From NCBI RefSeq assembly GCF_011045215.1, contig NZ_CP049201.1: a stretch of DNA of 64,000 nucleotides, one strand, 5' to 3'. This document shows positions 2,228-26,629 of the stretch, piece by piece (the first letter of the stretch is position 1; each line of letters opens with the position of its first letter). A model generated the notes under the pieces. It was not told the origin of the DNA. It saw nothing but the letters and a program-made list of their open reading frames with translations, and did not search any database. The translations under genes and the position numbers were made by a program. Source of the DNA: Escherichia coli. GTDB lineage: Bacteria > Pseudomonadota > Gammaproteobacteria > Enterobacterales > Enterobacteriaceae.

Positions 2228-3041
2228 GTTTGCCCTTCTCCGTTAAAAATTCGTCGGGTAGTTTCTGAGGGGCGTAGATCGGCAGTGCATCGCAACTGCA
2301 ATAAACCTCCTCCCCGGCAGCAGTGATTTCGTCATAAAAACCATATACGGGCTTAATCAGCCCCTGCTCCAGCGCCCACGAATCGCGGAGGAGATAAATT
2401 TTCTCGTCGCGCTCTTTGTGGTCCTGTCGGTATTTGTAGCCCGGACGCCGCCAATTCGAATGCCAGCGCAGAGCAATCGCTCCACTCTGAACAGCCAGCA
2501 GATACTTAACGTTGCTTGCCAGCTTATGCCCCTGGTCAATTGCCACCCGACGACTGATAAAATCCATATCCTTCACGGATTTCTGAAACCCGGCCTTCAC
2601 TTCCCGGCGATCAATTTCGCTCACCCCGTCAGGCGGAATGGACGTAACCCAACCCTGAAAACGCTGTATGGTTTTCTCGATGGCCTGTTCTCGGTTGAGT
2701 TTTATCAGGTTGGCACTGGCGAAAATTCGCCTGTCGAGTTCCTTGCGAAACTCAGGTTTCAGTTTTTCAACAGTGATTTTTTTAGGGCCGTCAGGAGGCT
2801 GATCCCGTAATGCCCCGCCGTCGATGACAAGACGGCTGTAGATAGCGGTGAGGTGTTTTCTGGCTACGGTATCATCAGGGGTTTCTCGCTGAGCGGCTAC
2901 ACGGAGTTTCCGGCACCATTCGAGCAATGATTTTTCGCTATCCCACCCGTGATTTACGTAGTAGTTAACGGCATCCGTCAGAACCTCATACAGCGTCCTG
3001 ATCCGTTTCTTCTTCCTCACCGCCCGGCTGGAAATTGCCAT
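2208..3041 (-). CDS. phage head morphogenesis protein (Mu F / SPP1 gp7-like minor head protein); start uncertain
   Basis: ORF immediately downstream of portal in late operon; track ORF (2208-3179) overlaps portal so an internal start is assumed. Confidence 0.35.
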   Translation of the reverse strand: MAISSRAVRKKKRIRTLYEVLTDAVNYYVNHGWDSEKSLLEWCRKLRVAAQRETPDDTVARKHLTAIYSRLVIDGGALRDQPPDGPKKITVEKLKPEFRKELDRRIFASANLIKLNREQAIEKTIQRFQGWVTSIPPDGVSEIDRREVKAGFQKSVKDMDFISRRVAIDQGHKLASNVKYLLAVQSGAIALRWHSNWRRPGYKYRQDHKERDEKIYLLRDSWALEQGLIKPVYGFYDEITAAGEEVYCSCDALPIYAPQKLPDEFLTEKGKREFNRA

Positions 3042-4425
3042 CAGGCGTCTCCTGCTTCGGTGGTTCATAATTCGCCAGCGCGTCCACATCAATGATGAGT
3101 GGAGCTTCGCCATAGGTTTGCGTGGCATTAACAAGGCTTGCCAGCCATTCAGTGACGGCGGCACGGTTTTCAGGATCAACCTGTGGCGACACGGCAGAGA
3201 AAAGTGCTATCGCCTGTTGAATCACTTTACTGTCGCTTTCCCGGCGTTTGTCCGGCGACTCCTCCACCAGCTCCTGCCATGTCGCGGTAAATTCACGTCG
3301 CCACTGGTAAAACGTGGTTTTATAGTCATCAGTTATGATGTCCGGGTAATCATTTTTCAGCGACTGATAAAATTCCTCGTTCCAGGCGATGTACTGCACC
3401 AGGCGTTCGAAATAATCCATCACGGGTTCAATCTGCTGGCGTACACCATCGATATACTGGCTGATGGCTTTCGAATCTTCGGTCCCCTCACCGAAACCAT
3501 TCGAAAAGGCTTCCTCTTTGATGAGGATCGCCGGAACGTCACTCCCTGACGCAATATCGGAAATAATATTGTCGCGTGCAGCGTTTAGCGCACCATCGAT
3601 GTTTTGTAGATTTAGCGAGGTAACGTCCTCATCCTTCCCGATACTAAGCACACCTTTATTTTTTGCCTCTTTGACGTTTTCCCTTTTTCGTCCCGTGGCG
3701 GCAGCCATGATCCCGTCAAGTTTCGAACCGTACTGCACAACTTTAGCTACCAGTACGCCCGCCTTCTGGCTGACGAGATCATTCGCCTCCATCGTGTTGA
3801 TATAGGATTTCAGGGAATAAAGAACGCGCTGAAACACACTTCGTCCGGTGAATCCGAACGATGAACTCTGAAACTCCAGATAAATCGGTGTGCCGTTGAA
3901 GATTTTCAGTGTGCGTGACGGATGCCAGTCTTTCCCACCAATCTTCAGTTTTTTATTGGCTTCCTGGAAAAACGGGCTGTTGGGGTTCTGGTCAGTCACC
4001 ATCGAACCGGAAGCGTTCAACGGGTCCCACGCGTTGATATACACGTCATCTTCTGTCAGTCCGAACGTCGGAAGCGGTTCACGACATGGAACGCTGTCGG
4101 TGCCCACGCCGATCGCTGCAGCACCGTAGCAACGAGACAGAAAAAACAGATTTTTAATCTTCTCGTTGACCTTCATGCGTTCCCATACCTCCTGAAAACG
4201 CCTCACAACCCTCTCGTCAGGGTCTGTCTCCACGTTATACTGGCGCGGCTTACACATCGCCATCAGTATGGGTTTTTCGACAAGTTTTCCGCCCAGAGGA
4301 TGGAATTGCCACAGCTGCTTACACAATTCATAGCCAATGTCGGTTCCCGGCTGAATTTCTTCAGCCTCAAGAATACGCATCAGTGCCGAACCGAGGCCGC
4401 CAGTAATCTCGATCTCTGCCATCAA
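2986..4425 (-). CDS. phage portal protein, 479 aa
   Basis: Large ORF directly downstream of terminase large subunit with acidic C-terminus; canonical position of portal. Confidence 0.55.
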   Translation of the reverse strand: MMAEIEITGGLGSALMRILEAEEIQPGTDIGYELCKQLWQFHPLGGKLVEKPILMAMCKPRQYNVETDPDERVVRRFQEVWERMKVNEKIKNLFFLSRCYGAAAIGVGTDSVPCREPLPTFGLTEDDVYINAWDPLNASGSMVTDQNPNSPFFQEANKKLKIGGKDWHPSRTLKIFNGTPIYLEFQSSSFGFTGRSVFQRVLYSLKSYINTMEANDLVSQKAGVLVAKVVQYGSKLDGIMAAATGRKRENVKEAKNKGVLSIGKDEDVTSLNLQNIDGALNAARDNIISDIASGSDVPAILIKEEAFSNGFGEGTEDSKAISQYIDGVRQQIEPVMDYFERLVQYIAWNEEFYQSLKNDYPDIITDDYKTTFYQWRREFTATWQELVEESPDKRRESDSKVIQQAIALFSAVSPQVDPENRAAVTEWLASLVNATQTYGEAPLIIDVDALANYEPPKQETPDGNFQPGGEEEETDQDAV

Positions 4426-4439
4426 AAATATCCTGATTT

Positions 4440-5768
4440 TTACAACTCCGCGTAATTACCGTGCGCGATGATCAATCCATAGGTGTAACAATCGAAAAGG
4501 TCATCAGCACGTTTATGCGCGTCTTTGTCTGCCAGGTGGAACCCGGCGATTTGTTTGATGAGGTGGTTTGCGGTTGTGCGCTTGAATGAAACGGTTTTGT
4601 CGTAAGCCTCGCGGGTAATTTTGCATTTACCCTGGTAATGGTGGCTGGAAGCCAGCACCGCGCGCTCGTCTTTCCCTTTGCTGGTTAACGCTGATTTAAT
4701 CGGCGTCATATCCCAGCCTTCGGTTTCCGCTTTCTGGTTGAGGATTGCGCCCATTGCGGCATCCTCCATGAATACCCCCTGACTCCCCAGGCGCGGGCGG
4801 CAGAGTTGCGCCAGCCGCTCGAGGTTGTCATAAACACCGGGGATATACTCAGGAAGCAGCGACGCTTTAATTTGCGTCACATCCCAGTCGATAACGGTCA
4901 GTTTCGGCTCATCGGAATACGTGGACTCATACGCGAAGTAAACCACGCCTGTCCCGTCGTTCTCCGTCCCGCCTTTCAGCGCCGTATCCATTACCGCAAA
5001 AATCATGTCGCAGTGTCGCGGCATCTCAACCGGCTGGCCATCCACCAGCAGCTTATCGACATCGAGTAACGCGTCTTTGGACCAGTCTACGAACTCTGCA
5101 AGATATTCCTGCTGCCAGACGCGCGGATCGGATTTCTTCTCCGTTTCCTCCAGTTCTTCTTTCGGAATATACGGATTCGATGAAGTTGGCGCATGGTGCA
5201 TAACAAATCCCAGGGATTCATCGTGGCATATCGCGTAGAAAAAATTGCTCTCGTCGATACCGTTTGGTGTGGAAAATACCCACGCACAGCCGCGGTAATC
5301 GACAAGCGTCGGGCGTATCGCTCGGGGCCAGATTTCCTCGAGCATTTCCGGCGATTTAGTGAATGCGGCCTCATCAATCAGCACAGCGTGATATTTACGC
5401 CCACGCCCGGCCAGTTTGTTATTGTCCGTTACCCAAAAGTCGATGCGCCCCCCATTACGGAGAATGATGCGCTTTTCATTTTTTGACTGACTGAGGATCA
5501 GCGGTTGCAGAACGGCGCTAATTTCATCCCAGATTTCCTGGTACTGGCGGTATTGCGCGGTAAAAATCCCCACCCTACCCGCGATAAGTTGCCCGGTGGT
5601 AGGAACGGCAAATTTCCGCGTAGCGAAACTGGTAGCGATGTTCACCAGCATCACCGTTTTACCCCAGCGACGACCACAGCATACCGCGTGGAAGCGTTCC
5701 TCTATTGCCGCCGTCCATGCAGCTATTTGCCCCTCATGAGGTTTTGGGAGGTAGATTTCAATCGACAT
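4440..5768 (-). CDS. terminase large subunit, 442 aa
   Basis: Walker A-like motif CGRRWGKT near N-terminus, acidic nuclease-like C-terminal half; follows the small-subunit gene with a 4-codon overlap. Confidence 0.75.
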   Translation of the reverse strand: MSIEIYLPKPHEGQIAAWTAAIEERFHAVCCGRRWGKTVMLVNIATSFATRKFAVPTTGQLIAGRVGIFTAQYRQYQEIWDEISAVLQPLILSQSKNEKRIILRNGGRIDFWVTDNNKLAGRGRKYHAVLIDEAAFTKSPEMLEEIWPRAIRPTLVDYRGCAWVFSTPNGIDESNFFYAICHDESLGFVMHHAPTSSNPYIPKEELEETEKKSDPRVWQQEYLAEFVDWSKDALLDVDKLLVDGQPVEMPRHCDMIFAVMDTALKGGTENDGTGVVYFAYESTYSDEPKLTVIDWDVTQIKASLLPEYIPGVYDNLERLAQLCRPRLGSQGVFMEDAAMGAILNQKAETEGWDMTPIKSALTSKGKDERAVLASSHHYQGKCKITREAYDKTVSFKRTTANHLIKQIAGFHLADKDAHKRADDLFDCYTYGLIIAHGNYAEL

Positions 5769-6849
5769 TATCCACTCCCGGCATCGGCAGAGAGTTGTGG
5801 ATAATTATTTCGTTATTCTCACCACCCACGCCTTTTTTGAGGTTTTCAATCTCAGTGCGCAGCTTTTCGTTGCGAAGCCTCAGTCCTTCAAGCTCCAGAT
5901 CATTGCGACTGTCAGTTGCACCACCAGCAGAACTTCCTTTCGTCGCCATTATCAGCTTGATAAGTTCGCGCCGGGCGGCAGCCTTATCCTCCAGCAGGAT
6001 CTCAACACCAAATTTCCCGAGCTTTGCCCCTGCATATAATTGTCGCGCATCCCCATCAAGCAGAGTGGTATCAGCCATATAAAGCTGTCCCGTTCCCTCA
6101 CCGCAGCACTTCGGACAATCCGGATTGGGTATGGCGTTATCAACAAAGCCGAGGCCTCCATATTCCGGCTCGGGTTTGCCATCTCTGGAGGCCTGTGCCG
6201 CTGCCTTATCGAATTCTGCAATATCACGCCACTGGTAGAGGTGATTCTCGCCCCAGCAATAACGGCAGTTAACACGGCGAAATTGTGCCAACTGATTGGG
6301 GTCGGCCTGGACAATGGCCATCAACTGACTCACCAGTAAATCCAGGTCTGCGGTATAGCGTTTCTGATACTGATTGCGGAAGTAGCTGATAGCACGATAA
6401 ACCCTGGCATTTCTAAGCATACGGCTGGCGTTGCTGTTAGCTGTCGCACCTTGCCCCTCATAACCAGCCAGTCGGTATGCCTCTGTCGGCTTTTTCCCCT
6501 GAGCAACAAGCATCGCAAACTTAGCCTGCTGGTCAGAAATGCCGAATTCATCGGGGCAGAACGAAAATTCCTCCGCGTCGCCCTCATTCAGGCACGCATC
6601 GGATACTGGCTTTTTTTTCTGAGATTTTCCGTTCCGCTTTTGCGCAGTCTGCGCAGATTTTTTCTGCGCACTTTGTTGCGCAGTTTTGCGCATTTCTGTC
6701 TGCGCATTTTTCGGAGGTTTTTTGATGTAACGACGGGCTGTTGCGTAATTCAGTCCCCTTGCCTCACACCATGCCACCGGGGATACACCGGAGCGGGTGT
6801 ATTCAGCAATATATTCCTGCTGCAACGCCCCCCAGTCCGGTCTGCTCAT
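5758..6849 (-). CDS. terminase small subunit-like protein, 363 aa
   Basis: N-terminal HTH-like region, basic Lys/Gln-rich linker, position immediately upstream of terminase large subunit. Confidence 0.5.
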   Translation of the reverse strand: MSRPDWGALQQEYIAEYTRSGVSPVAWCEARGLNYATARRYIKKPPKNAQTEMRKTAQQSAQKKSAQTAQKRNGKSQKKKPVSDACLNEGDAEEFSFCPDEFGISDQQAKFAMLVAQGKKPTEAYRLAGYEGQGATANSNASRMLRNARVYRAISYFRNQYQKRYTADLDLLVSQLMAIVQADPNQLAQFRRVNCRYCWGENHLYQWRDIAEFDKAAAQASRDGKPEPEYGGLGFVDNAIPNPDCPKCCGEGTGQLYMADTTLLDGDARQLYAGAKLGKFGVEILLEDKAAARRELIKLIMATKGSSAGGATDSRNDLELEGLRLRNEKLRTEIENLKKGVGGENNEIIIHNSLPMPGVDNVD

Positions 6850-6852
6850 TAG

Positions 6853-7062
6853 TTAGTCCTGATTTTTATCCACCCTGAGTAGTTCACGCAGGGCAAAGGC
6901 ATCCCCTTTTCTGGCAAGCTTAAACAATGCCGCCCGTAGTTCGGCTTCACCTTTCGCTCTGCCCTTACGGATGGATGCGTAAAAATCTGTCATTGCTTCC
7001 CGATTTTCTTTCAGTCGGTTCAGATCAACATCCAGAACGTCAGCGATTTGTTGTGCAGTCAT
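6853..7062 (-). CDS. small HTH-like phage protein (about 69 aa from internal Met)
   Basis: Short ORF between GT-A-like gene and terS; alpha-helical basic sequence; start chosen to avoid overlap with upstream gene. Confidence 0.3.
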   Translation of the reverse strand: MTAQQIADVLDVDLNRLKENREAMTDFYASIRKGRAKGEAELRAALFKLARKGDAFALRELLRVDKNQD

Positions 7063-7990
7063 CCGGCACGCTGCCAGAGACTCGACTTTCGAATACGGAA
7101 TCATTTGTCACCCCCATTGATATGCAGGGTGTCTTCTTCCTGTATTTTTCGTGAAGGATTTTTACTGCAGCGTTGTTCCAGGTGACCTGATGGTGAATGC
7201 GTTTATGGCTGGCCCCCATCAGTGAGATTTTTACGCACGAGGGCGCATACATGACGGAGTAAAAACTTTTAACGTAGGTTCCGGAATCCAGATACAGCTC
7301 GGTCATTCCGCCGCTGTTTTTCTGCGTCTGTTTCTGCCCTAACTGGACAGCACCGATCGTCATAAACAATTCACCACAGCGACCGAGATTCGTGTACGTA
7401 TTCACATCCTCGTTAATGCGCCCCATGAATGAGAACGGTCGATCAACCGAACAGATAAAGCTGTTCATTGCCTTGCGTTTCACCCACGAAGCATGGCCGC
7501 CATTGTCACCAAGAAAATCCCCGCCCTGCGACATAGCGATGGAAAGCGCAGGTATTGATTCGTAGTACGCCAGCATTTCAGAAAGGATCGCATCCAGTTT
7601 TCTTATCGGGAAATAGGCCTGGTCATAGTTGCGATCCACCCGAAACTGAAACTCGTGATAATCATCATCGAGCTGAATGAAGTATTTACACCCGACCAGT
7701 TTTGCCAGGTCGAAACAGGCATTACGGGCGTAAAAAATTGAGCGGCGATCACCGAAATTATCGGCTTCGTCAAAACGACTGGCTATATCGGCTTTGGAAA
7801 ACACCAGCACCTGTTCACCAAATTCAGCTATGTACTGATGCCGTGTCTTATCTTCATCATCAACAACGATAAAAATTTTCCCGGTATAGCCAGCACGACG
7901 CAACGTCCGGTAAGTCAGAACTTTGTCCGGTCGCCCGTGAGTCAGAATAAAGGCGCAAAAATCATCACGCATATTCCTCCTCCCCGCCAT
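7040..7990 (-). CDS. hypothetical protein with GT-A-like (nucleotide-diphospho-sugar transferase-like) motifs, about 310 aa
   Basis: N-terminal FILTHGRPD...IFIVVDDED and a later LDDDY (DXD-like) motif resemble GT2-type glycosyltransferases; translationally coupled to the upstream ParB-like gene. Confidence 0.35.
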   Translation of the reverse strand: MAGRRNMRDDFCAFILTHGRPDKVLTYRTLRRAGYTGKIFIVVDDEDKTRHQYIAEFGEQVLVFSKADIASRFDEADNFGDRRSIFYARNACFDLAKLVGCKYFIQLDDDYHEFQFRVDRNYDQAYFPIRKLDAILSEMLAYYESIPALSIAMSQGGDFLGDNGGHASWVKRKAMNSFICSVDRPFSFMGRINEDVNTYTNLGRCGELFMTIGAVQLGQKQTQKNSGGMTELYLDSGTYVKSFYSVMYAPSCVKISLMGASHKRIHHQVTWNNAAVKILHEKYRKKTPCISMGVTNDSVFESRVSGSVPDDCTTNR

Positions 7991-8753
7991 GCATGATCTC
8001 CACCATACGCTGCGTCATCCGGACAAAACCATTTTCGATGGCTTGCTGATAATCAATGATCACCAGTGCCGACTCCTCAAAAAGGCCCTGAATTTCAGCG
8101 GGGGCGTGAGCGTAATAGTCTGCAATTCTGCTGAAATTAAACACCGTGTGGCGTTCTGCCGCGCACAGGAGGAATTTTTCGATATCAGGCTCAAGGGACG
8201 CCGTACGTATCCGGCTGACCAGCTCCTGAGTTTTCGTATCGTCGTACAGTTCACTGATATCCGGTTCATCCCCTGACGGCTCATAAACAGGCGTATCAAT
8301 TTTCGTCGTGTACGGCTCATCCTCATTCGCTGTACCTGGCAAAACATCCGTTAATAGTTCGTCAATTTCTGTCGGGCAGAATCCTGTCAGGGAGATATCA
8401 AAATCAGCATTGATTAGGTCCGACAGCTCCATCCGTAACAGATCTTCATCCCAGCCAGCACTCATCGGCAGGCGATTATCAGCCAGGCGGTACGCCTTTT
8501 TCTGATCATCCGTCAGACCAGACAGAACAATGACCGGAACCGAATCCATTTTGAGCGCCTCAGCCGCCATAACACGCCCGTGCCCCGCAATAATTTCACC
8601 CTTTTCATCAATCAGCACCGGATTTGTCCAGCCGAATTGCTTAATGCTTTCAACCAGCTGTGTCACCTGTTCAGGAGAGTGTGTCCTTGCATTGTGCACA
8701 TACGGAGACAACTCTTGTAACAGTCGATAGACAATATTCAATTTTTCGCTCAT
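7965..8753 (-). CDS. ParB-like nuclease domain protein, 262 aa
   Basis: ParB/Srx-type N-terminal domain (…VHNARTHS…IIAGHGR motif); start at the ATG preceded by a GAGG Shine-Dalgarno. Confidence 0.6.
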   Translation of the reverse strand: MSEKLNIVYRLLQELSPYVHNARTHSPEQVTQLVESIKQFGWTNPVLIDEKGEIIAGHGRVMAAEALKMDSVPVIVLSGLTDDQKKAYRLADNRLPMSAGWDEDLLRMELSDLINADFDISLTGFCPTEIDELLTDVLPGTANEDEPYTTKIDTPVYEPSGDEPDISELYDDTKTQELVSRIRTASLEPDIEKFLLCAAERHTVFNFSRIADYYAHAPAEIQGLFEESALVIIDYQQAIENGFVRMTQRMVEIMHGGEEEYA

Positions 8754-9226: not shown

Positions 9227-9508
9227 TCATTTACTGGTATGAGTTCTGCATCGGGCTATTTCATTCCGGGCCTTACTGTCACCGCGACAGATACAACGCA
9301 CCGTGTCTCCGGTCAGCGTGGTAATGTAAGCCTCATCCTCTTTTTCTACCGAAATACATGGAATATCCCAGCCCCGGCAATACTCAATTTTTGCTGCCAA
9401 GTGAGTGTCACGCGGATAGAACTCCAGACGATACATATCCCCCAGGACATGCACTTCCTCAACCTGACGGCCATCTTTAGTTACCGTTATTTTTTTCAGT
9501 GCGTACAT
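9227..9508 (-). CDS. Cys-rich hypothetical protein, 93 aa
   Basis: ORF with GGAGG Shine-Dalgarno 7 nt upstream of the internal ATG (MYALKK...), located just after a terminator-like hairpin downstream of the endolysin. Confidence 0.4.
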   Translation of the reverse strand: MYALKKITVTKDGRQVEEVHVLGDMYRLEFYPRDTHLAAKIEYCRGWDIPCISVEKEDEAYITTLTGDTVRCICRGDSKARNEIARCRTHTSK

Positions 9509-9575
9509 ACGTACCTCCGTTCTTTCGTTTTTTGAGTAATAAAAAAGGCCGCCACAGCGACCTTTGCCAGTACGT

Positions 9576-10121
9576 TTACAAACCAACGCGCGCTTTCATC
9601 CAGCCATAGACAAACGACTCATTGGCCTCGCGTTTCTCTGCCAGCTCCAGATAACGCTCGCCCTGCGTACAGTTCAGGGCTTTCACCAGTACCAGTTCAC
9701 CATCCCTGCTGCGATTTTTCAGATATGCCCGTAACGCATTAAGAGTACGCGGCCCGATGCGTCCATCTGCATCCATATCCGGATAGAGTTTCCCGCGCAG
9801 GTTGAAAACGTTCAGCCAGCGTTGAAGCATTCTGGACGCCACAGTTGGCCCCATGTTCACGCCCGTATCGCACAACTCTGAGGCAATATCCGGAGACAGG
9901 TTCGCAACCAGGTCGAATCGTGGTCCGTACCAGTAGTCCGCCTCGAGTATTTCCAGCGCCTGCTCACGCGTCAGGTCACGCATATCGCCATGATAACCGT
10001 GTGCGCGGGCAACTTTTTCAGTAATGCCCCATCTGGTCGGTCCACCTTTATCATCCGGATGATTGATGTAACCGCCCTCTTTTCCCAGAATTTCGTCAAA
10101 AATTTCATCTTTCGACTTCAT
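9576..10121 (-). CDS. endolysin, GH108-like lysozyme with peptidoglycan-binding domain
   Basis: Motifs EGGYINHPDDKGGPTRWGIT (GH108-like) and a C-terminal PG-binding-like region; downstream of two membrane-protein genes. Confidence 0.65.
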   Translation of the reverse strand: MKSKDEIFDEILGKEGGYINHPDDKGGPTRWGITEKVARAHGYHGDMRDLTREQALEILEADYWYGPRFDLVANLSPDIASELCDTGVNMGPTVASRMLQRWLNVFNLRGKLYPDMDADGRIGPRTLNALRAYLKNRSRDGELVLVKALNCTQGERYLELAEKREANESFVYGWMKARVGL

Positions 10122-10122
10122 A

Positions 10123-10413
10123 TCAGCGCCTTCGTAATACAAGGATTTTTGATACGTTCCCGCGTGCTCGTATCACCAGCACGCAGAACACCAGGTTAAT
10201 CAGGACGACCAGCCAGTTACCGGGTGGAAAGCGACCACACAGATAACAAAGCGGCGCAAAGGCATAAAGCAGCATCAGCAGCCAGGCCAGCCACGACATC
10301 AGCGGTTTATGTCTCGACTCACCACGACGATAAAAAAAGAGCGTCAGCACGATAACCGTGCTTAACACCACATTCAGTAATCCGGGAAGGTTACTTAACA
10401 TTACCGCCTCCAC
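10123..10413 (-). CDS. holin-like small membrane protein, 96 aa
   Basis: Two to three predicted hydrophobic helices and a basic C-terminus; immediately upstream of the endolysin. Confidence 0.45.
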   Translation of the reverse strand: MEAVMLSNLPGLLNVVLSTVIVLTLFFYRRGESRHKPLMSWLAWLLMLLYAFAPLCYLCGRFPPGNWLVVLINLVFCVLVIRARGNVSKILVLRRR

Positions 10414-10780
10414 CCCGCAGACGGGAGAACAGCCCGGATACCAGCGATGCGATATCCTGCTGGTGGATGAATGAGAGAATCTTCACTGACACCACCGATA
10501 CCAGTACCGCACAAAGCGCGTCGAGAGATGTGCTGTGGAGATTCAGTTTTTCAACCAGGTAAGACGCCATCACATCCGCCCCCAGCACGCCAACAATGAA
10601 CGACACCAGAAAATGCGCTGCCACACGCCAGACAGAAATCTTCTGTGGTATCGTGGCCACAAACAGCGCCCCTGCGAATGCACCAAACACAATCCCGAAA
10701 TCCGTTCCGGTAAACAGCCCGAATACCGTCGCCCCGCCGAGCGCCGCAGCCGTGCCGGAACCGGATAAGGGTTCAGACAT
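10391..10780 (-). CDS. holin (three predicted TM helices), 129 aa from MSEPLSG
   Basis: Internal ATG preceded by a GGAG Shine-Dalgarno; three hydrophobic segments; first gene of the lysis cassette. Confidence 0.5.
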   Translation of the reverse strand: MSEPLSGSGTAAALGGATVFGLFTGTDFGIVFGAFAGALFVATIPQKISVWRVAAHFLVSFIVGVLGADVMASYLVEKLNLHSTSLDALCAVLVSVVSVKILSFIHQQDIASLVSGLFSRLRGGGGNVK

Positions 10781-10975: not shown

Positions 10976-11277
10976 AGAGCATTCATCGTGTAGTAATAGA
11001 ATTATATTTATATATGGTCGCCACCAGAATGAGTCGTCAACCTACAAAGCCATCCTGGCTTACTGTACGTGTGCGCATGGAACAGGTAACGACTCATTCT
11101 GCTAACGACGTTTACAAGTAATAATCACATACCATTATGTAATACAAAAAAAAGCAGCACTGAAACTGTAACCGTTCAGATATTACAGCATGAAGAAAAA
11201 CAATAGTACCTACAAAGCTGTTCTCCGCGAAAATTCGCCAGTGCTGATAAAGCTATGCCTCGTTTGTTTTACAGGAG

Positions 11278-11349
<72 letters not shown>

Positions 11350-11352
11350 ATA

Positions 11353-11428
<76 letters not shown>

Positions 11429-12144: not shown

Positions 12145-12687
12145 TCAAGCCATTTTTTGAGCAAATGATTCTCGCATGGGAATGTATAGCGCATACTCAG
12201 CAACAGCCAACCAATTAGCAATTCGCTTTTCGCATGTGCTAAAACACCACTCTGGGTGTGCATCATTTAGCAATTCAGCCATTTTTCGCTTAGTCATCCC
12301 CCGCCCCTCATAGCGTTGCCGGAGAATACAAATCAATCCCGGATGATCCGCCATAACTTCGCCAATAACTCTGTCGATTATTAATGCCTCTGAATCGGCA
12401 CAATGTGCCAGCCAGCTCTTTTGCTTGCCGTTAATCATATCCCGCAAAAAAGCCTCAAGTTCAGGCTTGTCCAGACCTGCTTTTTTCATCCTCCGGAGCG
12501 CCTCGTTAATTGCCGTTTTTGTCAGCTTTTTAGAGGTCAACATCTGGTTAAACATATTCCCTGTCTTACCGCCACCAATATACGACCAGCGCCCCCACAT
12601 ACGCAGTTTTCCCTGAATCCAGACACTTTCCAGCGTAGTGAGACGAAGGTGTTCTCCGCTTTTTCCTGTATTCGTTGGGTAAATCAC
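12145..12687 (-). CDS. putative late-gene antiterminator (Q-like), about 180 aa, GTG start
   Basis: Last gene before a promoter-terminator region, the tRNAs and the lysis cassette; GTG start with AAGGAGG Shine-Dalgarno 7 nt upstream; assignment is positional. Confidence 0.4.
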   Translation of the reverse strand: MIYPTNTGKSGEHLRLTTLESVWIQGKLRMWGRWSYIGGGKTGNMFNQMLTSKKLTKTAINEALRRMKKAGLDKPELEAFLRDMINGKQKSWLAHCADSEALIIDRVIGEVMADHPGLICILRQRYEGRGMTKRKMAELLNDAHPEWCFSTCEKRIANWLAVAEYALYIPMRESFAQKMA

Positions 12688-12974
12688 AAATATCCCTCCT
12701 TTCTCCAGATTTCTTGTGTGCGAAAAACACCTTCTGCATGCATCAGGCGCAATTCTTCTTTGGTGTAATCGATGGTTTTTACTCTCCCGTCGATTAAATC
12801 GTGGCACGAGCTACAGGCAATCGCCGCCTGCATATCGTGTGGTTTTGTCGCTGTTCCACACGTCCCCGCCAGCCTGTAATGTGCCAGCACAGACGTTCCG
12901 GGATTGTGATTGCAGTAGCCAGGAATTCTGACCTGGCACATCTGGCCCCGCGCCGCTTTACGCAAATTCACCAT
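12684..12974 (-). CDS. DUF1364-family protein (YbcO-like putative nuclease), 96 aa
   Basis: Cys-rich motifs CQVRIPGYCN...HYRLAGTCGT...IACSSCHD as in lambdoid YbcO/NinG-region proteins. Confidence 0.55.
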   Translation of the reverse strand: MVNLRKAARGQMCQVRIPGYCNHNPGTSVLAHYRLAGTCGTATKPHDMQAAIACSSCHDLIDGRVKTIDYTKEELRLMHAEGVFRTQEIWRKEGYL

Positions 12975-16038: not shown

Positions 16039-16221
16039 TTAAAATAATGCAAAACAAATTAACCACACCACTACAACCGATGCTATTAACACCCTGATTG
16101 CAAACAGTGGACTGATATGTCGAAAAGGATTTTCCCAGATAATAAAAGCCGCTGCCAGAAATGCACTGATCAGGAAAACAATAACAAACAGCTCAATTTT
16201 GATTATCCAGAACATATTCAC
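16039..16221 (-). CDS. small membrane protein, 60 aa
   Basis: Two hydrophobic helices; stop codon overlaps the upstream gene. Confidence 0.3.
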   Translation of the reverse strand: MNMFWIIKIELFVIVFLISAFLAAAFIIWENPFRHISPLFAIRVLIASVVVVWLICFALF

Positions 16222-16508
16222 TGCATCGCCTTCTGTAAAATAACCGCATGCCCCAGCTTCTCCGCCAGTGCCAGTTCTGCCCTAGCACCTGCCGACCGCT
16301 GCCAGTCTTTCAGCATGTAAATCGCATCCACGCAGCGAATCATTGCCATGCAAATATCCATGTAGTGCGGCTGCGTCAGTCCGTCCGGAAGTACTGCCGG
16401 ATTTAAGACTGTGTGCCCATCCCGTTTCAGTTCCTCTTCCGCCTTGTGGAACGCCTCACGGTTGAAATTTTCATAGCCCGTCATTGGACCGGCGATATAA
16501 ACCCTCAC
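16218..16508 (-). CDS. DUF4406-like protein (nucleoside 2-deoxyribosyltransferase-like fold), 96 aa
   Basis: MRVYIAGPMTG...N...AF motif typical of the DUF4406 / deoxyribosyltransferase-like family. Confidence 0.5.
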   Translation of the reverse strand: MRVYIAGPMTGYENFNREAFHKAEEELKRDGHTVLNPAVLPDGLTQPHYMDICMAMIRCVDAIYMLKDWQRSAGARAELALAEKLGHAVILQKAMQ

Positions 16509-16786
16509 TCCAGAACCCTCCTGTTGAAATAAACGTAGTTATTCACTGTGCGCAACGGCATTCCGAATTTTCTGGCAATTTCTCTCCTGGACACGCCACG
16601 CTGATGCAACTGTCGCACCAGCTCAATATCGCTCTGCGGATATTTTGTTGACTGGTGATAATCACCACGCAACATCATGCCGATACCCAGTTCCCGTGCT
16701 TTCGCCCTGACCGCCGGCTCACTACGACCAATCAGACTGCCGATGCTGTCGACTGTCATCGTTCCCGCACACTGCCGGAGCACCAT
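16505..16786 (-). CDS. HTH DNA-binding phage protein, about 93 aa; start uncertain
   Basis: Two HTH-like segments (SIGSLIGRSEPAVRAKARELGIG and VSRREIARKFGMPLRTV). Confidence 0.35.
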   Translation of the reverse strand: MVLRQCAGTMTVDSIGSLIGRSEPAVRAKARELGIGMMLRGDYHQSTKYPQSDIELVRQLHQRGVSRREIARKFGMPLRTVNNYVYFNRRVLE

Positions 16787-16824
16787 GATTTCAGCCCTGC
16801 ACCACTTCTTCCAGCCACTCACCG

Positions 16825-17604
16825 CTACCGTTCTCCGGTGGCGATAATCTGTCTGACAATATCCTTGTGCCTGTACAGTTCCCGCAGCGCCGCGCAGACT
16901 CGCTCCCACTTCCGGACATGATTTTTCGCCCGACGCAGTTCGCGGTTTGCCATATGCAGTGATGGTAAAACCAGGTCATCAGCTCGCGTTTCAGTAAACG
17001 ATGGCAGCGAATGCACAATGTCCGCCACAGTTTCTGTTTTAATATCTTCCTGTGTTGCAGCCTCCTGTACTGGTAACGCAACACATGCAGGTTGAGGAAA
17101 GGCTTTACCATCAGTTTCCGCTACCGATGCAGCTTTCGGCTCTGCTGGTAAATTATCGCCCGGCATGCAGTAACGAAATTTACCGTTCTGATTAACGCGA
17201 ATCAGACGACCTTTACTGATTGCCATTGCCAGCGTTGAAGCCACTTTGCGTGATGTGGTGCCGAAAAACGTAGCCAGTTCATCCGCCGTTTGTGGGCCAC
17301 GTTGTTCAATCGTCGCAGTTAAATCGCACTCCGAAATTTTCGCGACTGTTGCCGTGGCGGTTTCTTCCGGCAGTTCTGCCTGCTCTGGCTGTTCCTGCTG
17401 AACGTTGTTATCAGCCACACGCCAGGTGTATACGCTTTTATCAACGAAACCAGCCTTTTTCAGTTCCCACAGCTCGTTCAGTACCTCTTCACGACTGATA
17501 TCAAGTCGCGCAGCCAGTTCTACCGACGTGGCTTTTCCCATTGCTTTCAGTGCGTCAAAAACAGTCTCCATTAAAATTTCCTCCCGGTAAAAATCACTTC
17601 GCAA
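16825..17604 (-). CDS. hypothetical phage protein (YdaW / DUF1627-like position), 259 aa
   Basis: N-terminal winged-helix-like region; directly downstream of the DnaC-like gene as ydaW is in Rac. Confidence 0.4.
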
Positions 17605-18340
17605 TTCCTAGCTGGACGACATTCGGACGCCAGCTCTCCCAGTTAAAATTCACCCATCGCCCGCCGTTCATGGTCATGCGATCCATAATCCTCTCGCCGA
17701 GCAATGTTTTCATGGCCTCATAGTTCAGGTTTGTCAGCATCCCCACGCTGCGCATCGACGCTGTCCGGCGATCAACAATCTGGTGCAGCACCACCAGCTC
17801 GTTTTTTGTCTCGCGCTGAATGCCAATTTCATCAAGAACCAGCAGATCCACTTCGCACAGTTCCCGCAAAAATTTTTCGCCTGATTTCCCGTCGTCATAG
17901 CTGGCGTGTAGAGCACTCATGACATCAGCCACGGTAACCACAATCACTGTCTGGCCATCTTTCAGCAGGCGATTCCCGATTGCCGCCGCCAGATGGTTTT
18001 TTCCGGTACCAGGTTTTCCGCTGAACGCAAAATTTGTACACCCGGTCATCAGTTCATCAGCGATAGATTTCGCCTGGCTCAACGCGTATCGCTGGCCGTC
18101 GTTCTGCACCAGGTAATTCGCAAACGAGCATTTGCGGTGCAACAGCTGGATGCCGGAGCGATTCAGGATTTTTTCCACCCGCAACTGACGATTCTGACGG
18201 TTGATCTCCTCACAACGTTTCTGGCCTTCTACAAGTTGCCACTCGCGCCACTCCGCCACCGTCCTGAATGGCGCGGTTACATGTGACGGGGCCAGTCTGC
18301 GGATACGTTCCAGAACGCCGCCTGTCGCAATATTTTTCAT
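17594..18340 (-). CDS. ydaV: DnaC-like replication helicase loader (IstB-type AAA ATPase), 248 aa
   Basis: Walker [16 protein letters not shown] and Walker B LLVLDEIG; downstream of the O-like gene; length matches Rac YdaV. Confidence 0.7.
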
Positions 18341-19793: not shown

Positions 19794-20216
19794 TTAATGA
19801 ACAACAACAGAATCGCCGGACGAACCGCCGCCGCTGAAATGCGCTTTACGGTAAACGGCCTGGACTGCGTCATCATGCGCATCAATTGCCGTACTCAGTG
19901 CGTCCTGTGCCGCAAGTAATGCCCGTCGTTCCAGGGTATCGAAGATGCTGAGTCGGTGGCGCAGCTCGCGCGGAAGGATTGCCAGAATTGCTGGGATCAG
20001 CTTCTGAATTTTTTCTCTTTGCGTTTTCGTTTCACCTTTCAACCAACGGTGATAGATATTCTGCTGATTGTTCCAGTCCTTGCCTGGTACCAGGGGCAAT
20101 TCGCCGCCCCCCTGGCGCAGATATTCTTCAGTAATTGCATTGGCTACCCATGCCTGCCCTTTTTCGGCTGCCAGGGCTAACAGCACTGATTCGATGTGCT
20201 CATGCCTGATTTTCAT
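19794..20216 (-). CDS. ydaT: YdaT-like protein, 140 aa
   Basis: Second gene of the cro-side operon divergent from the repressor; length and position match Rac YdaT. Confidence 0.55.
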   Translation of the reverse strand: MKIRHEHIESVLLALAAEKGQAWVANAITEEYLRQGGGELPLVPGKDWNNQQNIYHRWLKGETKTQREKIQKLIPAILAILPRELRHRLSIFDTLERRALLAAQDALSTAIDAHDDAVQAVYRKAHFSGGGSSGDSVVVH

Positions 20217-20502
20217 GAATCAACTCCTGTGCATTTTGTGTGTTAGTCTTACATCCAACAGGTAAACCATCGGTCGGATTCGGGTAGATATCAGGCCGAA
20301 GTTCATGAGGTGTAACCTCGAAATTCGTAGCCTCAGCGATACGCAATACCTTTTCGGGGCTTAACTGACTACGGCCAGTAGCTACGAGGCTAATCATTGA
20401 TTGCGAACAACCAGCGAGCGCGGCCAAACAAGACTGTCGTACACGATTTTTTTTCAAATATTCATCTAATGTCATAAGGGTCACCTTAGTAATGCCTGTC
20501 AA
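20200..20502 (-). CDS. ydaS: Cro-like HTH regulator (YdaS-like), about 100 aa
   Basis: HTH motif SCLAALAGCSQSMISLVATGRSQLS; divergent from the repressor gene across a 77-bp AT-rich region. Confidence 0.55.
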   Translation of the reverse strand: MTGITKVTLMTLDEYLKKNRVRQSCLAALAGCSQSMISLVATGRSQLSPEKVLRIAEATNFEVTPHELRPDIYPNPTDGLPVGCKTNTQNAQELIHENQA

Positions 20503-22985: not shown

Positions 22986-24887
22986 ATGAGCATAAAACAA
23001 CACTTCCTGTTACGGAAAGCGAAAAAATCATCCGGTGAACCTGACGCAGTTCTGTGGGCAAGCGACGATCTCGAATCGACCAGTGCCACTCTGGACTACC
23101 TGATTGTTAAGTCAGGTAAAAAACTGAGCAACTATTTTAAAGCTGTTGCTACGAATTTTCCTGTCGTTAACGACCTGCCCCCAGAAGGGGAGATCGATTT
23201 TACGTGGTGTGAACGCTATCAACTCGGCAAGGACTCCATCACCTGGGAACTAAAACCAGGTGCAGCACCAGACGACGTTCACCATCAGGAGAATATCCCG
23301 GAAACTGAAGAACTGGCTGGAGACCAGGAAGAAAACGCGCAGGCGGACGCTCACGGGGATTGCCAGGATTGCGAAGTTCCTGTAGCCACACTCAGTCTTA
23401 CTCATCGTTTCCTTCATCTCTTCTTTTTCGGTCAGATGGAAGGTGGAAAATACAGTAGTCACGCCACGCCGGAACAGCGCAATACCGTCATCCGGATGGA
23501 GCTGGATACGGAGGACAGCTACCTCCAGAGTCTGCTTACAGCAGTACGCTCTCATCCTGAACTGGATAAGCTGACAAACCACCATCTTGGCAGACTGGCG
23601 GAGTCTGTATCCAGAGTGTTTACCCACACAGAAACCCGTTGCATCAGCCCCGCTGAATTCGACAAATTCATTTCCACCTGGATGAAAACTGATTATCTGG
23701 ATCAGGGATTACTGACAAAAGAATGGGCGAAGGGAAACTGCGTATCTGAAATCAATCGCACCCCGTCGGGCGCTAATGCCGGTGGCGGTATCCTTACCGA
23801 CCGTGGAGAAGGTTTTGTCCATGATGATGCATCAGTAGCGCGTGACGTAGCCGCTGGCGTACTGGCACGTTCAATGGATATCGATATTTACAATCCACAT
23901 CCAGCACACGCTAAACGTATTGGGGAAATTGTCGCTGAAAATAAACCGCCATTTTCTGTTTTTTTCAGCAAATTCATCACCATGCCTGGCCACAAGGATT
24001 TCTCCCGCGCCATCGTGGTTGCGTCCGTGAAAGAAGCGCCAGTCGGTATAGAGGCTACCCCACACCATGTCACTGAATATCTGAACAGGGTGCTGACTGA
24101 AACCGATCATGCCAACCCTGATCCGGAAATCGTGGATATTGCCTGCGGTCGCTCCTCTGCCCCGATGCCACAGCGTGTAACAGAAGAAGAAAAACCGCAA
24201 CCATCTTGCGCAATGGCAGATGAACAGGCAACGGCTGAAACAGTGGAACCGGATACAAGTGAACATCATCAGGACACGCAGCCGCTGGATGCCAAGTCAC
24301 AGGCCGATGCGAAATATCAGAAACTGCGGGAAGAACTCCATGAAGCCCGGAAAAACATTCCGCCCAAAAATCCTGTCGATACAGACAAAATGCTGGCAGT
24401 CCATCGCGGTGAGTTCGTTGAAGGAATTAGCGACCCGAATGATCCGAAATGGGTGAAGGGAATTGAAACCCGCGATTCTGTGAACCAGAACCTGCCAGAA
24501 ACGGAAAAAACCAGTCAGGATGTGAAACAACCTGAGCCAGTAGTGCAACGGGAACCGGAAATAGTCTGCACCGCCTGCGGTCAGAGCGGTGGCGGCAACT
24601 GCCCTGATTGTGGCGCGGTGATGGGCGACGCAACATATCAGGAAACATTCGATGAAGAGAATCAGGCTGAAACTCAGGAAAATGATCCGGAGGAAATGGA
24701 AGGCACTGAACCATCATTAGAAAAACTCGACTGGAAAAGACAAGTGGTGATTGCGGCTGTTTATGGTTTGTGTGCGAATCCTGCAGGTATAGCCTCAGCG
24801 CCATTAATTCCGGGTATTGCAATGATGATTGCCAACAAGCTTGAAAATTTTGGGGTGACGGATGATGAGCACATACCCGATTTTTGA
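22986..24887 (+). CDS. recE: RecE N-terminal region homolog lacking the C-terminal exonuclease domain, 633 aa
   Basis: N-terminus [26 protein letters not shown] and internal blocks ([50 protein letters not shown]) match my recollection of Rac RecE residues 1 to about 600; ORF ends where the gam-like gene begins. Confidence 0.55.
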
Positions 24888-25161
24888 TCGCATTGAAGAG
24901 CTGGCATGGTCACGCCACTACCAGCAGATCGTTCGCGAAGAAAAAGAAACGGAGCTGGCAGACGACCTGGAAAAAGGTCTACCCCAGCACCTGTTTGAAT
25001 CGCTCTGCATCGACCATTTGCAACGCCACGGTGCCAGCAAACAGGCAATCAGTCGCGCATTTGATGACGATGTTGAATTTCAGGAACGCGTGGCGGAACA
25101 CATCCGGTACATGGTTGAAACCATTGCTCGTCACCAGGTTGATATTGATTTGAAGGTATAA
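24862..25161 (+). CDS. gam: Gam-like RecBCD inhibitor (short form), 99 aa
   Basis: [45 protein letters not shown]...HQVDID closely matches lambda Gam. Confidence 0.8.
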
Positions 25162-25166
25162 AACAA

Positions 25167-25952
25167 ATGAGTACAGCACTTGCAACACTGGCCGGGAAGC
25201 TGGCTGAACGTGTCGGCATGGATTCTGTCGACCCACAGGAACTGATCACCACTCTTCGCCAGACAGCATTTAAAGGCGATGCCAGCGATGCGCAGTTCAT
25301 CGCATTGCTGATCGTCGCCAACCAATACGGCCTTAATCCGTGGACGAAAGAAATTTACGCCTTCCCTGATAAGCAGAACGGCATCGTTCCGGTGGTGGGC
25401 GTTGATGGCTGGTCCCGCATCATCAATGAAAACCAGCAGTTTGATGGCATGGACTTTGAGCAGGACAATGAATCCTGTACATGCCGGATTTACCGCAAGG
25501 ACCGTAATCATCCGATCTGCGTTACCGAATGGATGGATGAATGCCGCCGCGAACCATTCAAAACCCGCGAAGGCAGAGAAATCACCGGACCGTGGCAGTC
25601 GCATCCCAAACGAATGTTGCGGCATAAAGCCATGATTCAGTGTGCCCGTCTGGCCTTCGGATTTGCTGGTATCTATGACAAGGATGAAGCCGAGCGCATT
25701 GTCGAAAATACCGCATACACTGCAGAACGTCAGCCAGAACGCGACATCACTCCGGTTAACGATGAAACCATGCAGGAGATTAACACTCTGCTGATCGCCC
25801 TGGATAAAACATGGGATGACGACTTATTGCCGCTCTGTTCCCAGATATTTCGCCGCGACATTCGCGCATCGTCAGAACTGACACAGGCCGAAGCAGTGAA
25901 AGCTCTTGGATTCCTGAAACAGAAAGCCACTGAGCAGAAGGTGGCAGCATGA
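25167..25952 (+). CDS. bet: Bet (Red-beta) single-strand annealing protein, 261 aa
   Basis: Near-identical to lambda Bet over its length ([37 protein letters not shown]...). Confidence 0.9.
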
Positions 25953-26629
25953 CACCGGACATTATCCTGCAGCGTACAGGGATCGACGTGAGAGCTGTCG
26001 AACAGGGGGATGATGCATGGCACAAATTACGGCTCGGCGTCATCACCGCTTCAGAAGTTCACAACGTGATAGCAAAGCCCCGCTCAGGAAAGAAGTGGCC
26101 TGACATGAAAATGTCCTACTTCCACACCCTGCTGGCTGAGGTTTGCACCGGTGTGGCTCCGGAAGTTAATGCTAAGGCGCTGGCCTGGGGAAAACAGTAC
26201 GAGAACGACGCCAGAACCCTGTTTGAATTCACTTCCGGCGTGAATGTTACTGAATCCCCGATCATCTATCGCGACGAAAGTATGCGCACCGCCTGCTCTC
26301 CCGATGGTTTATGCAGTGACGGCAACGGCCTTGAACTGAAATGCCCGTTTACCTCCCGGGATTTCATGAAATTCCGGCTCGGTGGTTTCGAGGCAATAAA
26401 ATCGGCTTACATGGCCCAGGTGCAGTACAGCATGTGGGTGACGCGAAAAGATGCCTGGTACTTTGCCAACTATGACCCGCGTATGAAGCGTGAAGGCCTG
26501 CATTATGTCGTGGTTGAGCGGGATGAAAAGTACATGGCGAGTTTTGACGAGATGGTGCCGGAGTTCATCGAAAAAATGGACGAGGCACTGGCTGAAATTG
26601 GTTTTGTATTTGGGGAGCAATGGAAATGA
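25949..26629 (+). CDS. exo: lambda-type Exo (Red-alpha) 5'-3' exonuclease, 226 aa
   Basis: Near-identical to lambda Exo ([40 protein letters not shown]...). Confidence 0.9.

Follow-up and report, generated by a model that had tools for sequence, protein, structure and literature searches.

A TAGT-family glycosyltransferase and its ParB-linked partner protein in a Rac-like prophage of Escherichia coli

The gene pair and its products

The 64,000-nucleotide stretch of Escherichia coli DNA analysed here (the window; RefSeq assembly GCF_011045215.1, contig NZ_CP049201.1) contains a Rac-like lambdoid temperate prophage. Two adjacent genes of this prophage, one encoding a 262-amino-acid (aa) ParB-like protein (the partner protein) and the other a putative glycosyltransferase of 310 aa, form the pair under study, and the coordinates of the pair and of its surroundings are collected in Table 1. 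The original prediction had described a tight two-gene unit, consisting of a ParB/Srx-domain protein and a protein of roughly 310 aa with the glycosyltransferase-like motifs FILTHGRPD, IFIVVDDED, and LDDDY, between the lysis cassette and the terminase. Both open reading frames (ORFs) were read from the sequence on the minus strand where that prediction had placed them, the ParB/Srx protein was matched by the Pfam and PHROG profiles, and all three motifs were present. The location between the lysis cassette and the terminase was also as described, with the refinement that one small gene (6853-7104) intervenes between the pair and terS. The title of the prediction had further called the ParB-like protein a nuclease; this is a legacy annotation name, and nothing shows nuclease activity.

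The ParB-like protein starts with MSEKLN, and GAGG is located 5 nt upstream of its ATG codon. A longer ORF extending to position 8840 is possible, and its start is used neither by RefSeq nor by the homologues. The ORF of the transferase spans positions 7040-7990 (316 aa), and its real start is the ATG at 7972 (MRDD..., 310 aa), which is the RefSeq start in a 99%-identical E. coli prophage. A strong Shine-Dalgarno sequence, GGAGGAGG (7976-7983), was found inside the ParB-like gene 3 nt before this ATG. The ATG of the transferase gene and the stop codon of the ParB-like gene share the octamer ATGCGTGA (7965-7972), so the two genes overlap by 8 nt. An overlap of this length is typical of coupled translation, and the shared octamer makes translational coupling of the pair plausible. 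Overlapping or abutting genes are likewise seen in nearly all related loci.

Many database entries of 390-470 aa (P0004-P0045 and P0121), which are 93-99% identical to the E. coli genes, resemble fusions of the partner to the transferase or of the transferase to its neighbor. Given the 8-nt overlap, these entries are most likely products of single-base assembly errors or frameshifts and not real fusions. The tail of the transferase (about 25 residues, …ISMGVTNDSVFESRVSGSVPDDCTTNR; 7040-7115 on the minus strand of the window) is missing from almost all of the homologues, which are 280-290 aa in length, and is specific to the E. coli lineage. Its coding sequence extends 23-65 nt into the following gene, according to which start is used.

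In RefSeq, the ParB-like product is called 'ParB/Srx family N-terminal domain-containing protein' (ynaK in some strains), and the transferase is called 'GREB1-related protein'. The 2.2-kb region matched 1247 of 5426 complete E. coli genomes, and the match covered at least 80% of its length in 862 of those. Because of this distribution and of the conservation of the pair as far as Lactobacillus, Vibrio, and Haloarcula viruses, the pairing is not a chance arrangement. The families are known and the E. coli genes have already been named in RefSeq; the pair is therefore not a new kind of system.

Table 1. Coordinates in the window of the gene pair, the domains of the partner protein, and the surrounding prophage features
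Feature	Position	Strand	Evidence or remark
ParB-like/C-domain protein gene	7965..8753	-	ORF and sequence; phrog_620 E 2.9e-86; Pfam ParB_N E 4.7e-6
TAGT-family GT-A glycosyltransferase gene (putative), 310 aa	7040..7972	-	PF20691 E 2.6e-34; phrog_842 E 4.7e-103
Coupling junction (plausible)	7965..7983	-	Shine-Dalgarno GGAGGAGG 7976-7983; transferase ATG 7970-7972; ParB-like stop TGA 7965-7967
ParB/Srx-type N-domain, residues 1-100	8454..8753	-	aligned to ParB/Spo0J structures 4umk, 1vz0, 6sdk, 7bnk
Short helical segment and acidic linker, residues 101-147	8313..8453	-	net charge -13; gap-rich variable columns
C-terminal partner domain, residues 148-262	7968..8312	-	extended motif, then six-helix bundle
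Portal	2986-4425	-	phrog_146 E 5.6e-75
Large terminase terL	4440-5768	-	phrog_2 E 7e-35
Small terminase terS	5758-6849	-	phrog_51 E 2e-71
Small helix-turn-helix protein, kin to DNA-binding part of small terminases	6853..7104	-	phrog_309 E 1.7e-22
Gene-free stretch, ~470 nt	between small ORF 9227-9508 and ParB-like gene		
Small ORF of unknown function	9227-9508	-	phrog_33497
Endolysin	9576-10142	-	
Two holins	10123-10780	-	
tRNA-Gly (anticodon UCC) and tRNA-Thr (anticodon UGU)	11277-11428	-	between Q-like antiterminator and holins
Q-like antiterminator	12145-12690	-	
Integrase	27354-28589		

Both the sequence and the structural model identify the 310-aa protein as a predicted GT-A enzyme, in agreement with the glycosyltransferase idea of the original prediction. 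The protein matched the Pfam family TAGT (TET-associated glycosyltransferase, PF20691) over the full length of the model (residues 14-228; model positions 4-205 of 205), and no match to NCBIfam or PADLOC was obtained. TAGT was reportedly defined by Iyer et al. in 2013 (NAR 41:7635). Homologues of the transferase formed more than 8000 clusters at 90% identity, all of which were listed with PF20691. FILTHGRPD (residues 8-16), IFIVVDDED (residues 33-41), and LDDDY (residues 101-105) are invariant or nearly so throughout the family. In addition, R14, D38, D41, D102-D104, and Y105 were invariant in two alignments reaching down to 41% identity, and the catalytic R...DDxD...DDDY motif is intact. A signature of the form R...DDD...EDY/F has been described for DNA-acting GT-A enzymes and the base-J glucosyltransferase JGT (bioRxiv 10.1101/2023.12.21.572611). 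The AlphaFold model was confident in the N-terminal half (approximately residues 1-150; predicted local distance difference test [pLDDT] values mostly 80-95 by block), and the best matches of the model in the PDB, searched with Foldseek, were SpsA, SunS/ThuS, GalS1, ColGalT1, and glycogenin, with a probability of 1.0 for the top matches.

The partner protein consists of a ParB/Srx-type N-domain, a short helical segment followed by an acidic linker, and a C-terminal domain (C-domain). The family profile of the N-domain matched Noc and ParB structures in the PDB with E values of 1e-12 to 1e-9. The N-domain is much nearer to methyltransferase-attached ParB domains (phrog_498, E 5.6e-49; PADLOC MTase_II, E 5.7e-37) than to chromosomal partition ParB (TIGR00180, E 8.7e-9), which is consistent with the earlier remark that this slot in phages usually holds a ParB-methyltransferase pair. 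The accompanying statement that the partner here is not a methyltransferase also held, neither protein having a methyltransferase match in Pfam. The N-domain is weakly conserved; only G57, N21, G41, and R60 are found in more than 80% of the family. Among the residues of the ParB boxes, R60 is kept in 84%, N93 in 78%, and R23 in 59% of the sequences. No ParA was annotated in a close relative of the prophage or among the annotated prophage ORFs, and no evidence of parS was seen, although no search was aimed at it. The whole protein is very acidic (net charge -28; isoelectric point [pI] 4.4; family median 4.7), whereas the transferase is basic (pI 8.0-8.6; family median 8.8), and the charges of the two proteins are complementary.

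The C-domain is much better conserved than the ParB part. It carries the extended motif Y-[TS]-x-K-I-x-x-P-[IV]-Y-E-P-x-G-x-x-P, which is followed by the stretches AAxRH, YYAHA, and SALVIID. Across 149 sequences whose identity to the query is only about 50%, five positions are invariant, and at least 90% of the sequences conserve 24 more. The AlphaFold model of the C-domain (mean pLDDT 83; core approximately 92-98) shows an all-helical six-helix domain after the extended motif. No relative of this domain outside its own family was found in Pfam, the PDB, or AFDB, and the ParB dimerization domains are included among the nonmatches. A search of 1.84 billion representative proteins yielded 1189 family members. 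In the 150 best matches listed, the domain is situated at or near the C terminus, and most of the proteins are 240-310 aa in length and fused to ParB, and some are 130-200 aa. The conserved His, His, and Asp residues had suggested a small dioxygenase or cupin as a candidate; this was rejected on the basis of the confident all-helical model, which has no structural relative.

Association of the C-domain with TAGT genes

Three scans of IMG/VR were performed, two of them seeded with transferases (one headed by that of E. coli, the other by a distant homologue) and the third with stand-alone C-domains. Each scan covered the 80 loci closest to the query out of up to 600 candidate stretches, related contigs included. 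Together with look-ups in a phage database and of contigs, 245 loci with 191 distinct transferase-domain sequences were obtained, in which genes were called as simple ORFs. The C-domain gene was located directly upstream of the transferase gene, overlapping or abutting it, in 175 of the 191 distinct modules, and a single gene lay between the two in a further 13; the C-domain thus adjoins the transferase upstream or one gene away in 188 modules. The intervening gene encodes either another TAGT or a histidine phosphatase fused to a cytidylyl/adenylyl-transferase. As for the remaining modules, the transferase gene was at the start of the contig and cut by its end in two, and a TAGT was present on both sides of the partner gene in one (L222). 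The survey that the original prediction had proposed therefore shows that the genes co-occur far beyond this prophage.

The association was also seen from the side of the C-domain. Of the 80 loci of the C-domain-seeded scan, 66 passed an automatic test for an immediately downstream TAGT. Manual reading of eight of the 14 that did not pass showed a TAGT in each, and a pooled re-analysis revealed no locus lacking one. Four look-ups that started from diverse C-domain proteins likewise found a TAGT next to the gene, or an overlapping ORF with a transferase-profile match where the contig cuts the downstream gene. The pair occurs in the Lactobacillus phages phi jlb1, c5, LL-Ku, and Ld17, Haloarcula virus HHTV-2, Nocardia phage NTR1, Porphyromonas phages, and 191-kb Vibrio phages. 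A natural fusion of 534 aa (P0269; loci L085 and L086) contains a TAGT, a ParB domain, and a C-domain in one polypeptide, and its gene is followed by a second TAGT, terL, and the portal gene.

The ParB part, on the other hand, is not constant. Stand-alone C-domains of 109-194 aa without a ParB domain were found in 13 distinct modules, in the Vibrio phages and 12 others. Mean pairwise identities were 54% for the transferase, 50% for the C-domain, and 39% for the N-domain, and the pairwise identity of the C-domain tracked that of the transferase more closely than did the identity of the N-domain (Spearman rho 0.42 versus 0.11; rough values that are not corrected for phylogeny). Based on the adjacency of the C-domain and TAGT and on the modules lacking ParB, the core module is the C-domain plus TAGT. 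The constant partner of the transferase is thus the last ~115 residues of the upstream protein and not the ParB N-domain, and ParB is a common but replaceable front end of this core. Three points are absent from the accessible literature: that this TAGT clade and an orphan C-terminal domain are coupled almost completely in both directions, that the module can dispense with its ParB part, and that whole-genome evidence shows the module to stand alone.

These observations bear on the possibility that the acceptor of the transferase is a small molecule, such as a nucleotide, a cofactor, or an immune signal, and that the ParB/Srx domain is a nucleotide-binding or phosphotransfer module instead of a clamp. 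Sulfiredoxin, a serine kinase, and SbnI are weak profile matches of the ParB/Srx fold, the phosphate-binding residues R60, N93, and R23 are partly kept, and the partner is too acidic to have the look of a DNA binder. However, the N-domain is dispensable and poorly conserved and is closest to the ParB domains of DNA methyltransferases. Furthermore, such an acceptor has no precedent in the TAGT family and leaves the adjacency to terminase unexplained. We therefore consider it very unlikely.

Among the genes downstream of the module in 65 diverse loci were those for small terminases, for large terminases belonging to at least three Pfam types, and for portals belonging to five. Phage c5, a cos phage, has the pair as ORF1 and ORF2, which come first and directly after the cos site. 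In the 191-kb Vibrio phages, the pair is situated among replication genes and not beside the terminase. Enzymes of nucleotide-sugar metabolism were found in or beside variant modules, namely GalE (434 bits; cut-off 262), UDP-galactopyranose mutase (367 bits; cut-off 304), and GDP-mannose dehydratase. Other additions were the histidine-phosphatase/nucleotidyltransferase fusion and tandem TAGTs, and the locus with TAGTs on both sides of the partner gene (L222, 3721-7375) also carries a UDP-galactopyranose mutase. The presence of nucleotide-sugar enzymes argues for an active Leloir-type transferase that may sometimes build more than one sugar. C5-cytosine methylases were found near the module in 2 of 121 upstream neighbor clusters and ThyX in one locus, and in another locus (L213, 6222-7175) the transferase gene is directly followed by a gene for a radical-SAM protein.

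The constant position directly before the genes for small and large terminases, which belong to several families, and the fact that ParB-family proteins organize DNA would also suit a packaging accessory without chemistry. In such an arrangement, the pair would help the terminase to find or handle DNA, and the glycosyltransferase fold would be a noncatalytic scaffold. This appears most improbable in view of the DxD-type catalytic residues, which are invariant from E. coli to the Haloarcula viruses, and of the recruitment of nucleotide-sugar enzymes and extra glycosyltransferases into variant modules. The Vibrio phages, in which the pair is kept away from the terminase, argue in the same direction.

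Setting in the prophage

On the minus strand, the genes are arranged in the order antiterminator, tRNAs, holins, endolysin, small ORF, ParB-like gene, transferase gene, helix-turn-helix (HTH) gene, terS, terL, and portal. The pair of tRNA-Gly and tRNA-Thr genes is annotated in a related prophage too, and an Rfam scan near the pair detected nothing beyond these two tRNAs. No sigma-70-like site was found upstream of the pair in a promoter scan. A terminator-like hairpin (9 pairs, followed by a T run) is located at 9544-9565 (-), just past the stop codon of the endolysin gene. The HTH gene, whose product resembles the small terminase, encodes 83 aa in the window and 69 aa in RefSeq, and follows the transferase gene in enterobacterial versions only. 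Among the 80 first-scan loci, tblastn detected it downstream of the transferase in 63, each with a transferase identity of at least 73%; seven close relatives were truncated at this point, and 10 loci below approximately 63% identity were unmatched by tblastn.

An O-antigen or seroconversion transferase and a virion-glycosylation transferase were also considered for the 310-aa protein. Both were rejected on the basis of the late-operon, terminase-adjacent place and the ParB-linked partner. Seroconversion transferases are membrane-associated and are encoded near the integrase.

A close relative of the prophage (42 kb, annotated) has intR, xisR, recE/recT, kilR, and ydaT. The recombination region of the window prophage (22986-26629, +) looks mosaic, with a gene for a 633-aa RecE-like protein followed by Bet-like annealing and exonuclease genes. 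The RecE-like protein matches approximately the first 530 of the 883 positions of the exonuclease VIII profile, and the close relative has a full-length recE and recT. YdaS/YdaT toxin-like genes are present in the immunity region (19794-20502, -). In the related prophage of NZ_AP042701.1 (L001), a gene named 'type I restriction endonuclease' lies among the baseplate genes (1011-2171), and the gene at the portal position (16186-17622) is named 'anti-CBASS protein Acb1 family protein' in RefSeq. The latter name is probably wrong because the counterpart in the window (2986-4425) matches the portal family phrog_146.

Candidate function and acceptor of the module

On balance, we favor the view that the two proteins of the pair make up a DNA glycosyltransferase module of a temperate phage, which is expressed late and assisted by the ParB-like protein. 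The assignment to DNA is supported by the record of the family on DNA and by a ParB domain of the methyltransferase type, as well as by the location close to the packaging genes, the existence of a natural fusion, and the complementary charges of the two proteins. The assistance by ParB is proposed because of the parallels with the ParB activators of thymine dioxygenases and with the methyltransferase-fused ParB domains. We infer DNA as the acceptor, a complex of the two proteins, the timing of expression, and a benefit against restriction, and the module would operate as follows. The TAGT enzyme would take sugar from the nucleotide-sugar pool of the host and attach it to phage DNA that has already been replicated, either ahead of packaging or in the course of it. 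The acidic upstream protein would be an obligatory partner, whose C-domain and linear motif would bind and activate the transferase or give it specificity, and the ParB-type N-domain, usual but dispensable, would couple the complex to DNA. Progeny DNA would thereby be shielded from restriction or other nucleic-acid defenses in the next host.

For the thymine dioxygenases, the role of ParB has been demonstrated directly by experiment. O'Toole et al. (PNAS 2026; PMC13229309) reported that a subclass of phage thymine dioxygenases requires ParB-like proteins for action on double-stranded DNA and that the requirement is specific to the cognate protein. By description, these activators consist of a nucleotide-binding domain, short helices, an unstructured linker, and a C-terminal domain and have no DNA-binding domain (PMC13229309), and the window partner is built alike. 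They are encoded beside the DNA-modifying enzyme and co-occur with terminases, and their C-terminal domain is essential (PMC13229309). On the other hand, their client is an iron/2-oxoglutarate dioxygenase of the 5-methylpyrimidine dioxygenase (5mYOX) type, whereas the client in the window is a glycosyltransferase and no 5mYOX is present. In the same study, glycosyltransferases go with the ParB-independent clade of dioxygenases, and the ParB proteins mostly keep the residues of the CTP site (PMC13229309), in contrast to the window partner, which has GHGR in place of GERR.

As for the phage and plasmid DNA methyltransferases fused to an N-terminal ParB domain (phrog_498 and PADLOC MTase_II), these are the closest relatives of the N-domain, and the similarity extends over residues 4-146 of the partner. 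It ends at approximately residue 145, after which the C-domain stands in place of the methyltransferase. The S-adenosylmethionine-dependent enzyme is fused to ParB in these proteins, whereas the catalytic partner in the window is a separate GT-A protein. The chromosomal and plasmid CTP clamps ParB, Spo0J, and Noc share the fold of the N-domain, and most of the partner family retains the box I Arg, the final Arg of GERR, and the box III Asn. In contrast to these clamps, the window partner lacks the central HTH, the canonical dimerization domain, and the Glu and first Arg of GERR, is strongly acidic, and has no ParA partner that we could find. According to Burke et al. (PMC8256090), Aravind and coworkers proposed that ParB directs modification apparatuses during packaging.

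The glycosyltransferases of phage methyltransferase/TET (5mYOX) clusters, kinetoplastid JGT, and GREB1 have the R...DDD...(E/D)DY signature in common with the window transferase. The 5mYOX clusters and the window module also share a postreplicative logic, and sugar epimerases, second glycosyltransferases, terminases, and ParB are frequent neighbors in both (PMC8256090; bioRxiv 10.1101/2023.12.21.572611). However, the enzymes of those clusters act on 5-hydroxymethylcytosine (5hmC) or 5-hydroxymethyluracil (5hmU) supplied by the adjacent dioxygenase, and the window module has neither a dioxygenase nor a methyltransferase.

Several results weigh against a DNA glycosyltransferase of this kind. The main weakness is that no acceptor is evident for the transferase. 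No TET/JBP, thymidylate-synthase-type hydroxymethylase, or DNA methyltransferase was found by PHROG and Pfam among the prophage ORFs of the window, and the annotated 42-kb relative has no TET/JBP, hydroxymethylase, or DNA methyltransferase either. The complete 31.8-kb genome of phage c5 likewise lacks them, and its unannotated proteins gave no oxygenase, thymidylate-synthase, or methylase match. Among 237 neighbor proteins from the 65 diverse loci, no TET/JBP or hydroxymethylase was present in the 20 commonest families that the neighbor scans show, in which single occurrences could be hidden. A hidden precursor pathway was thus looked for in the prophage ORFs, the c5 proteins, and the neighbors and was not found. 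Furthermore, no report of a modified base in any pair-carrying phage was found in the accessible literature, nor was any experiment on a ParB/TAGT pair without a dioxygenase. The proteins themselves add to these points. The C-terminal half of the transferase model has pLDDT values below 50; the model is poor past residue ~150 because the alignment was shallow (14 close sequences). The partner is acidic and has no HTH or ParB C-terminal match in Pfam and no recognizable DNA-binding domain, its ParB part is missing from the stand-alone versions, and its GERR box aligns to G57-H58-G59-R60, in which the Glu for CTP hydrolysis and one Arg are replaced. At position 58, the sequences of the family have H (65%) or N (26%) in most cases, and position 59 is variable.

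Since no precursor enzyme was found, the module belongs to the class of 'solitary TAGT', whose function was left open and which was counted in 288 of 753 phage genomes (PMC13216743). Similarly, approximately 65% of viral contigs with such glycosyltransferases have no neighboring base-modifying enzyme (bioRxiv 10.1101/2023.12.21.572611). Apart from GREB1, the TAGT relatives with known acceptors all act on the hydroxyl group of 5hmC, 5hmU, or a sugar attached to them (PMC13216743; bioRxiv 10.1101/2023.12.21.572611). It is doubtful, although worth considering, that the two genes alone glycosylate unmodified DNA at a canonical base, in the backbone, or at a DNA end; the C-domain would then supply the recognition or activation of the acceptor, which is the role of the dioxygenase in known pathways.

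The acceptors known for TAGT enzymes are all hydroxymethyl-pyrimidines or sugars on these, and the transferase could instead act on bases or sugars made elsewhere, such as 5hmC, 5hmU, or glucosyl-5hmC of a co- or superinfecting phage, or on the product of a highly divergent oxidase encoded in another part of the genome. The module would then be the tail end of a longer pathway or a weapon of the prophage against modified phages. We consider this rather unlikely. Thousands of 5mYOX-like contigs escape the TET/JBP model of Pfam (PMC13229309), the left end of the prophage is outside the window, and the few C5-cytosine methylases and the ThyX mentioned above would fit such a pathway. However, the complete phage c5 has the pair and no candidate partner, and the same applies to the 42-kb relative. 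In addition, the module lies in the late packaging-proximal operon of both lytic and temperate viruses rather than in a slot for lysogenic conversion, and every locus retains the dedicated partner.

The chief rival is protein glycosylation, in which the transferase would modify the Tyr/Thr motif of its own partner, in a manner like that of glycogenin, or another phage or host protein involved in packaging or defense, and not DNA. The motif is invariant (Y9 99%, Y18 100%, P16 and P25 99%) and yet extended, with pLDDT values of 57-72, and thus resembles a docking peptide; the conserved peptide may equally be a binding or activating element. SunS, ThuS, ColGalT1, and glycogenin are among the structural matches of the transferase, but the GT-A matches obtained with Foldseek are generic (E ~1e-4). 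The eukaryotic TAGT relative GREB1 O-GlcNAcylates a protein (PMC7968844), whereas the characterized viral members of TAGT act on DNA. Tandem glycosyltransferases and sugar-nucleotide genes fit a glycan on protein equally well, and no DNA acceptor is evident. On the other hand, the fusion to a methyltransferase-type ParB domain and the fixed place before the terminase point to DNA. Taken together, we regard protein glycosylation as unlikely and retain the ParB-assisted DNA glycosyltransferase as the preferred interpretation.

The beta-glucosyl-HMC-alpha-glucosyltransferase of T2/T6 is the founding characterized member of PF20691; it belongs to the same family as the window transferase, has the GT-A fold, and is phage-encoded, and its name is carried by the PHROG family that matched the window protein. 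The T-even enzyme adds a second glucose to alpha-glucosyl-5hmC in a phage whose genome makes 5hmC before replication and also encodes an alpha- or beta-glucosyltransferase, whereas the window prophage has none of these. The two enzymes are too distant to be matched by tblastn at E 1e-5. Furthermore, the C-domain partner was present upstream of every assessable member of the window clade, in a survey to which the T-even loci did not belong. The name 'beta-glucosyl-HMC-alpha-glucosyltransferase' has spread to temperate and archaeal viruses (for example, NC_019449.1 ORF2, NC_024206.1 jlb1_025, and NC_021340.1 gene 22), and the complete genome of one of these viruses, phage c5, shows no 5hmC pathway. 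It over-states what is known for this clade and is not justified for the window protein because the latter differs from the T-even enzyme in the lack of 5hmC synthesis, in its distant sequence, and in the C-domain partner.

The locus assigns one solitary-TAGT module to a lambdoid prophage of the most tractable host, E. coli, and the composition of the module is now defined as a TAGT together with a highly conserved orphan domain as its partner, ParB being optional. If the pair modifies DNA without a precursor enzyme, it would represent a new chemistry and a new anti-restriction strategy for temperate phages, and the glycosylation of unmodified DNA in particular would be an undescribed chemistry present in approximately a fifth of sequenced E. 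coli as well as in bacterial and archaeal viruses. If it does not, the annotation 'DNA glycosyltransferase' across thousands of phage genomes needs correcting. In either case, the role of ParB-like activators would extend from dioxygenases to glycosyltransferases.

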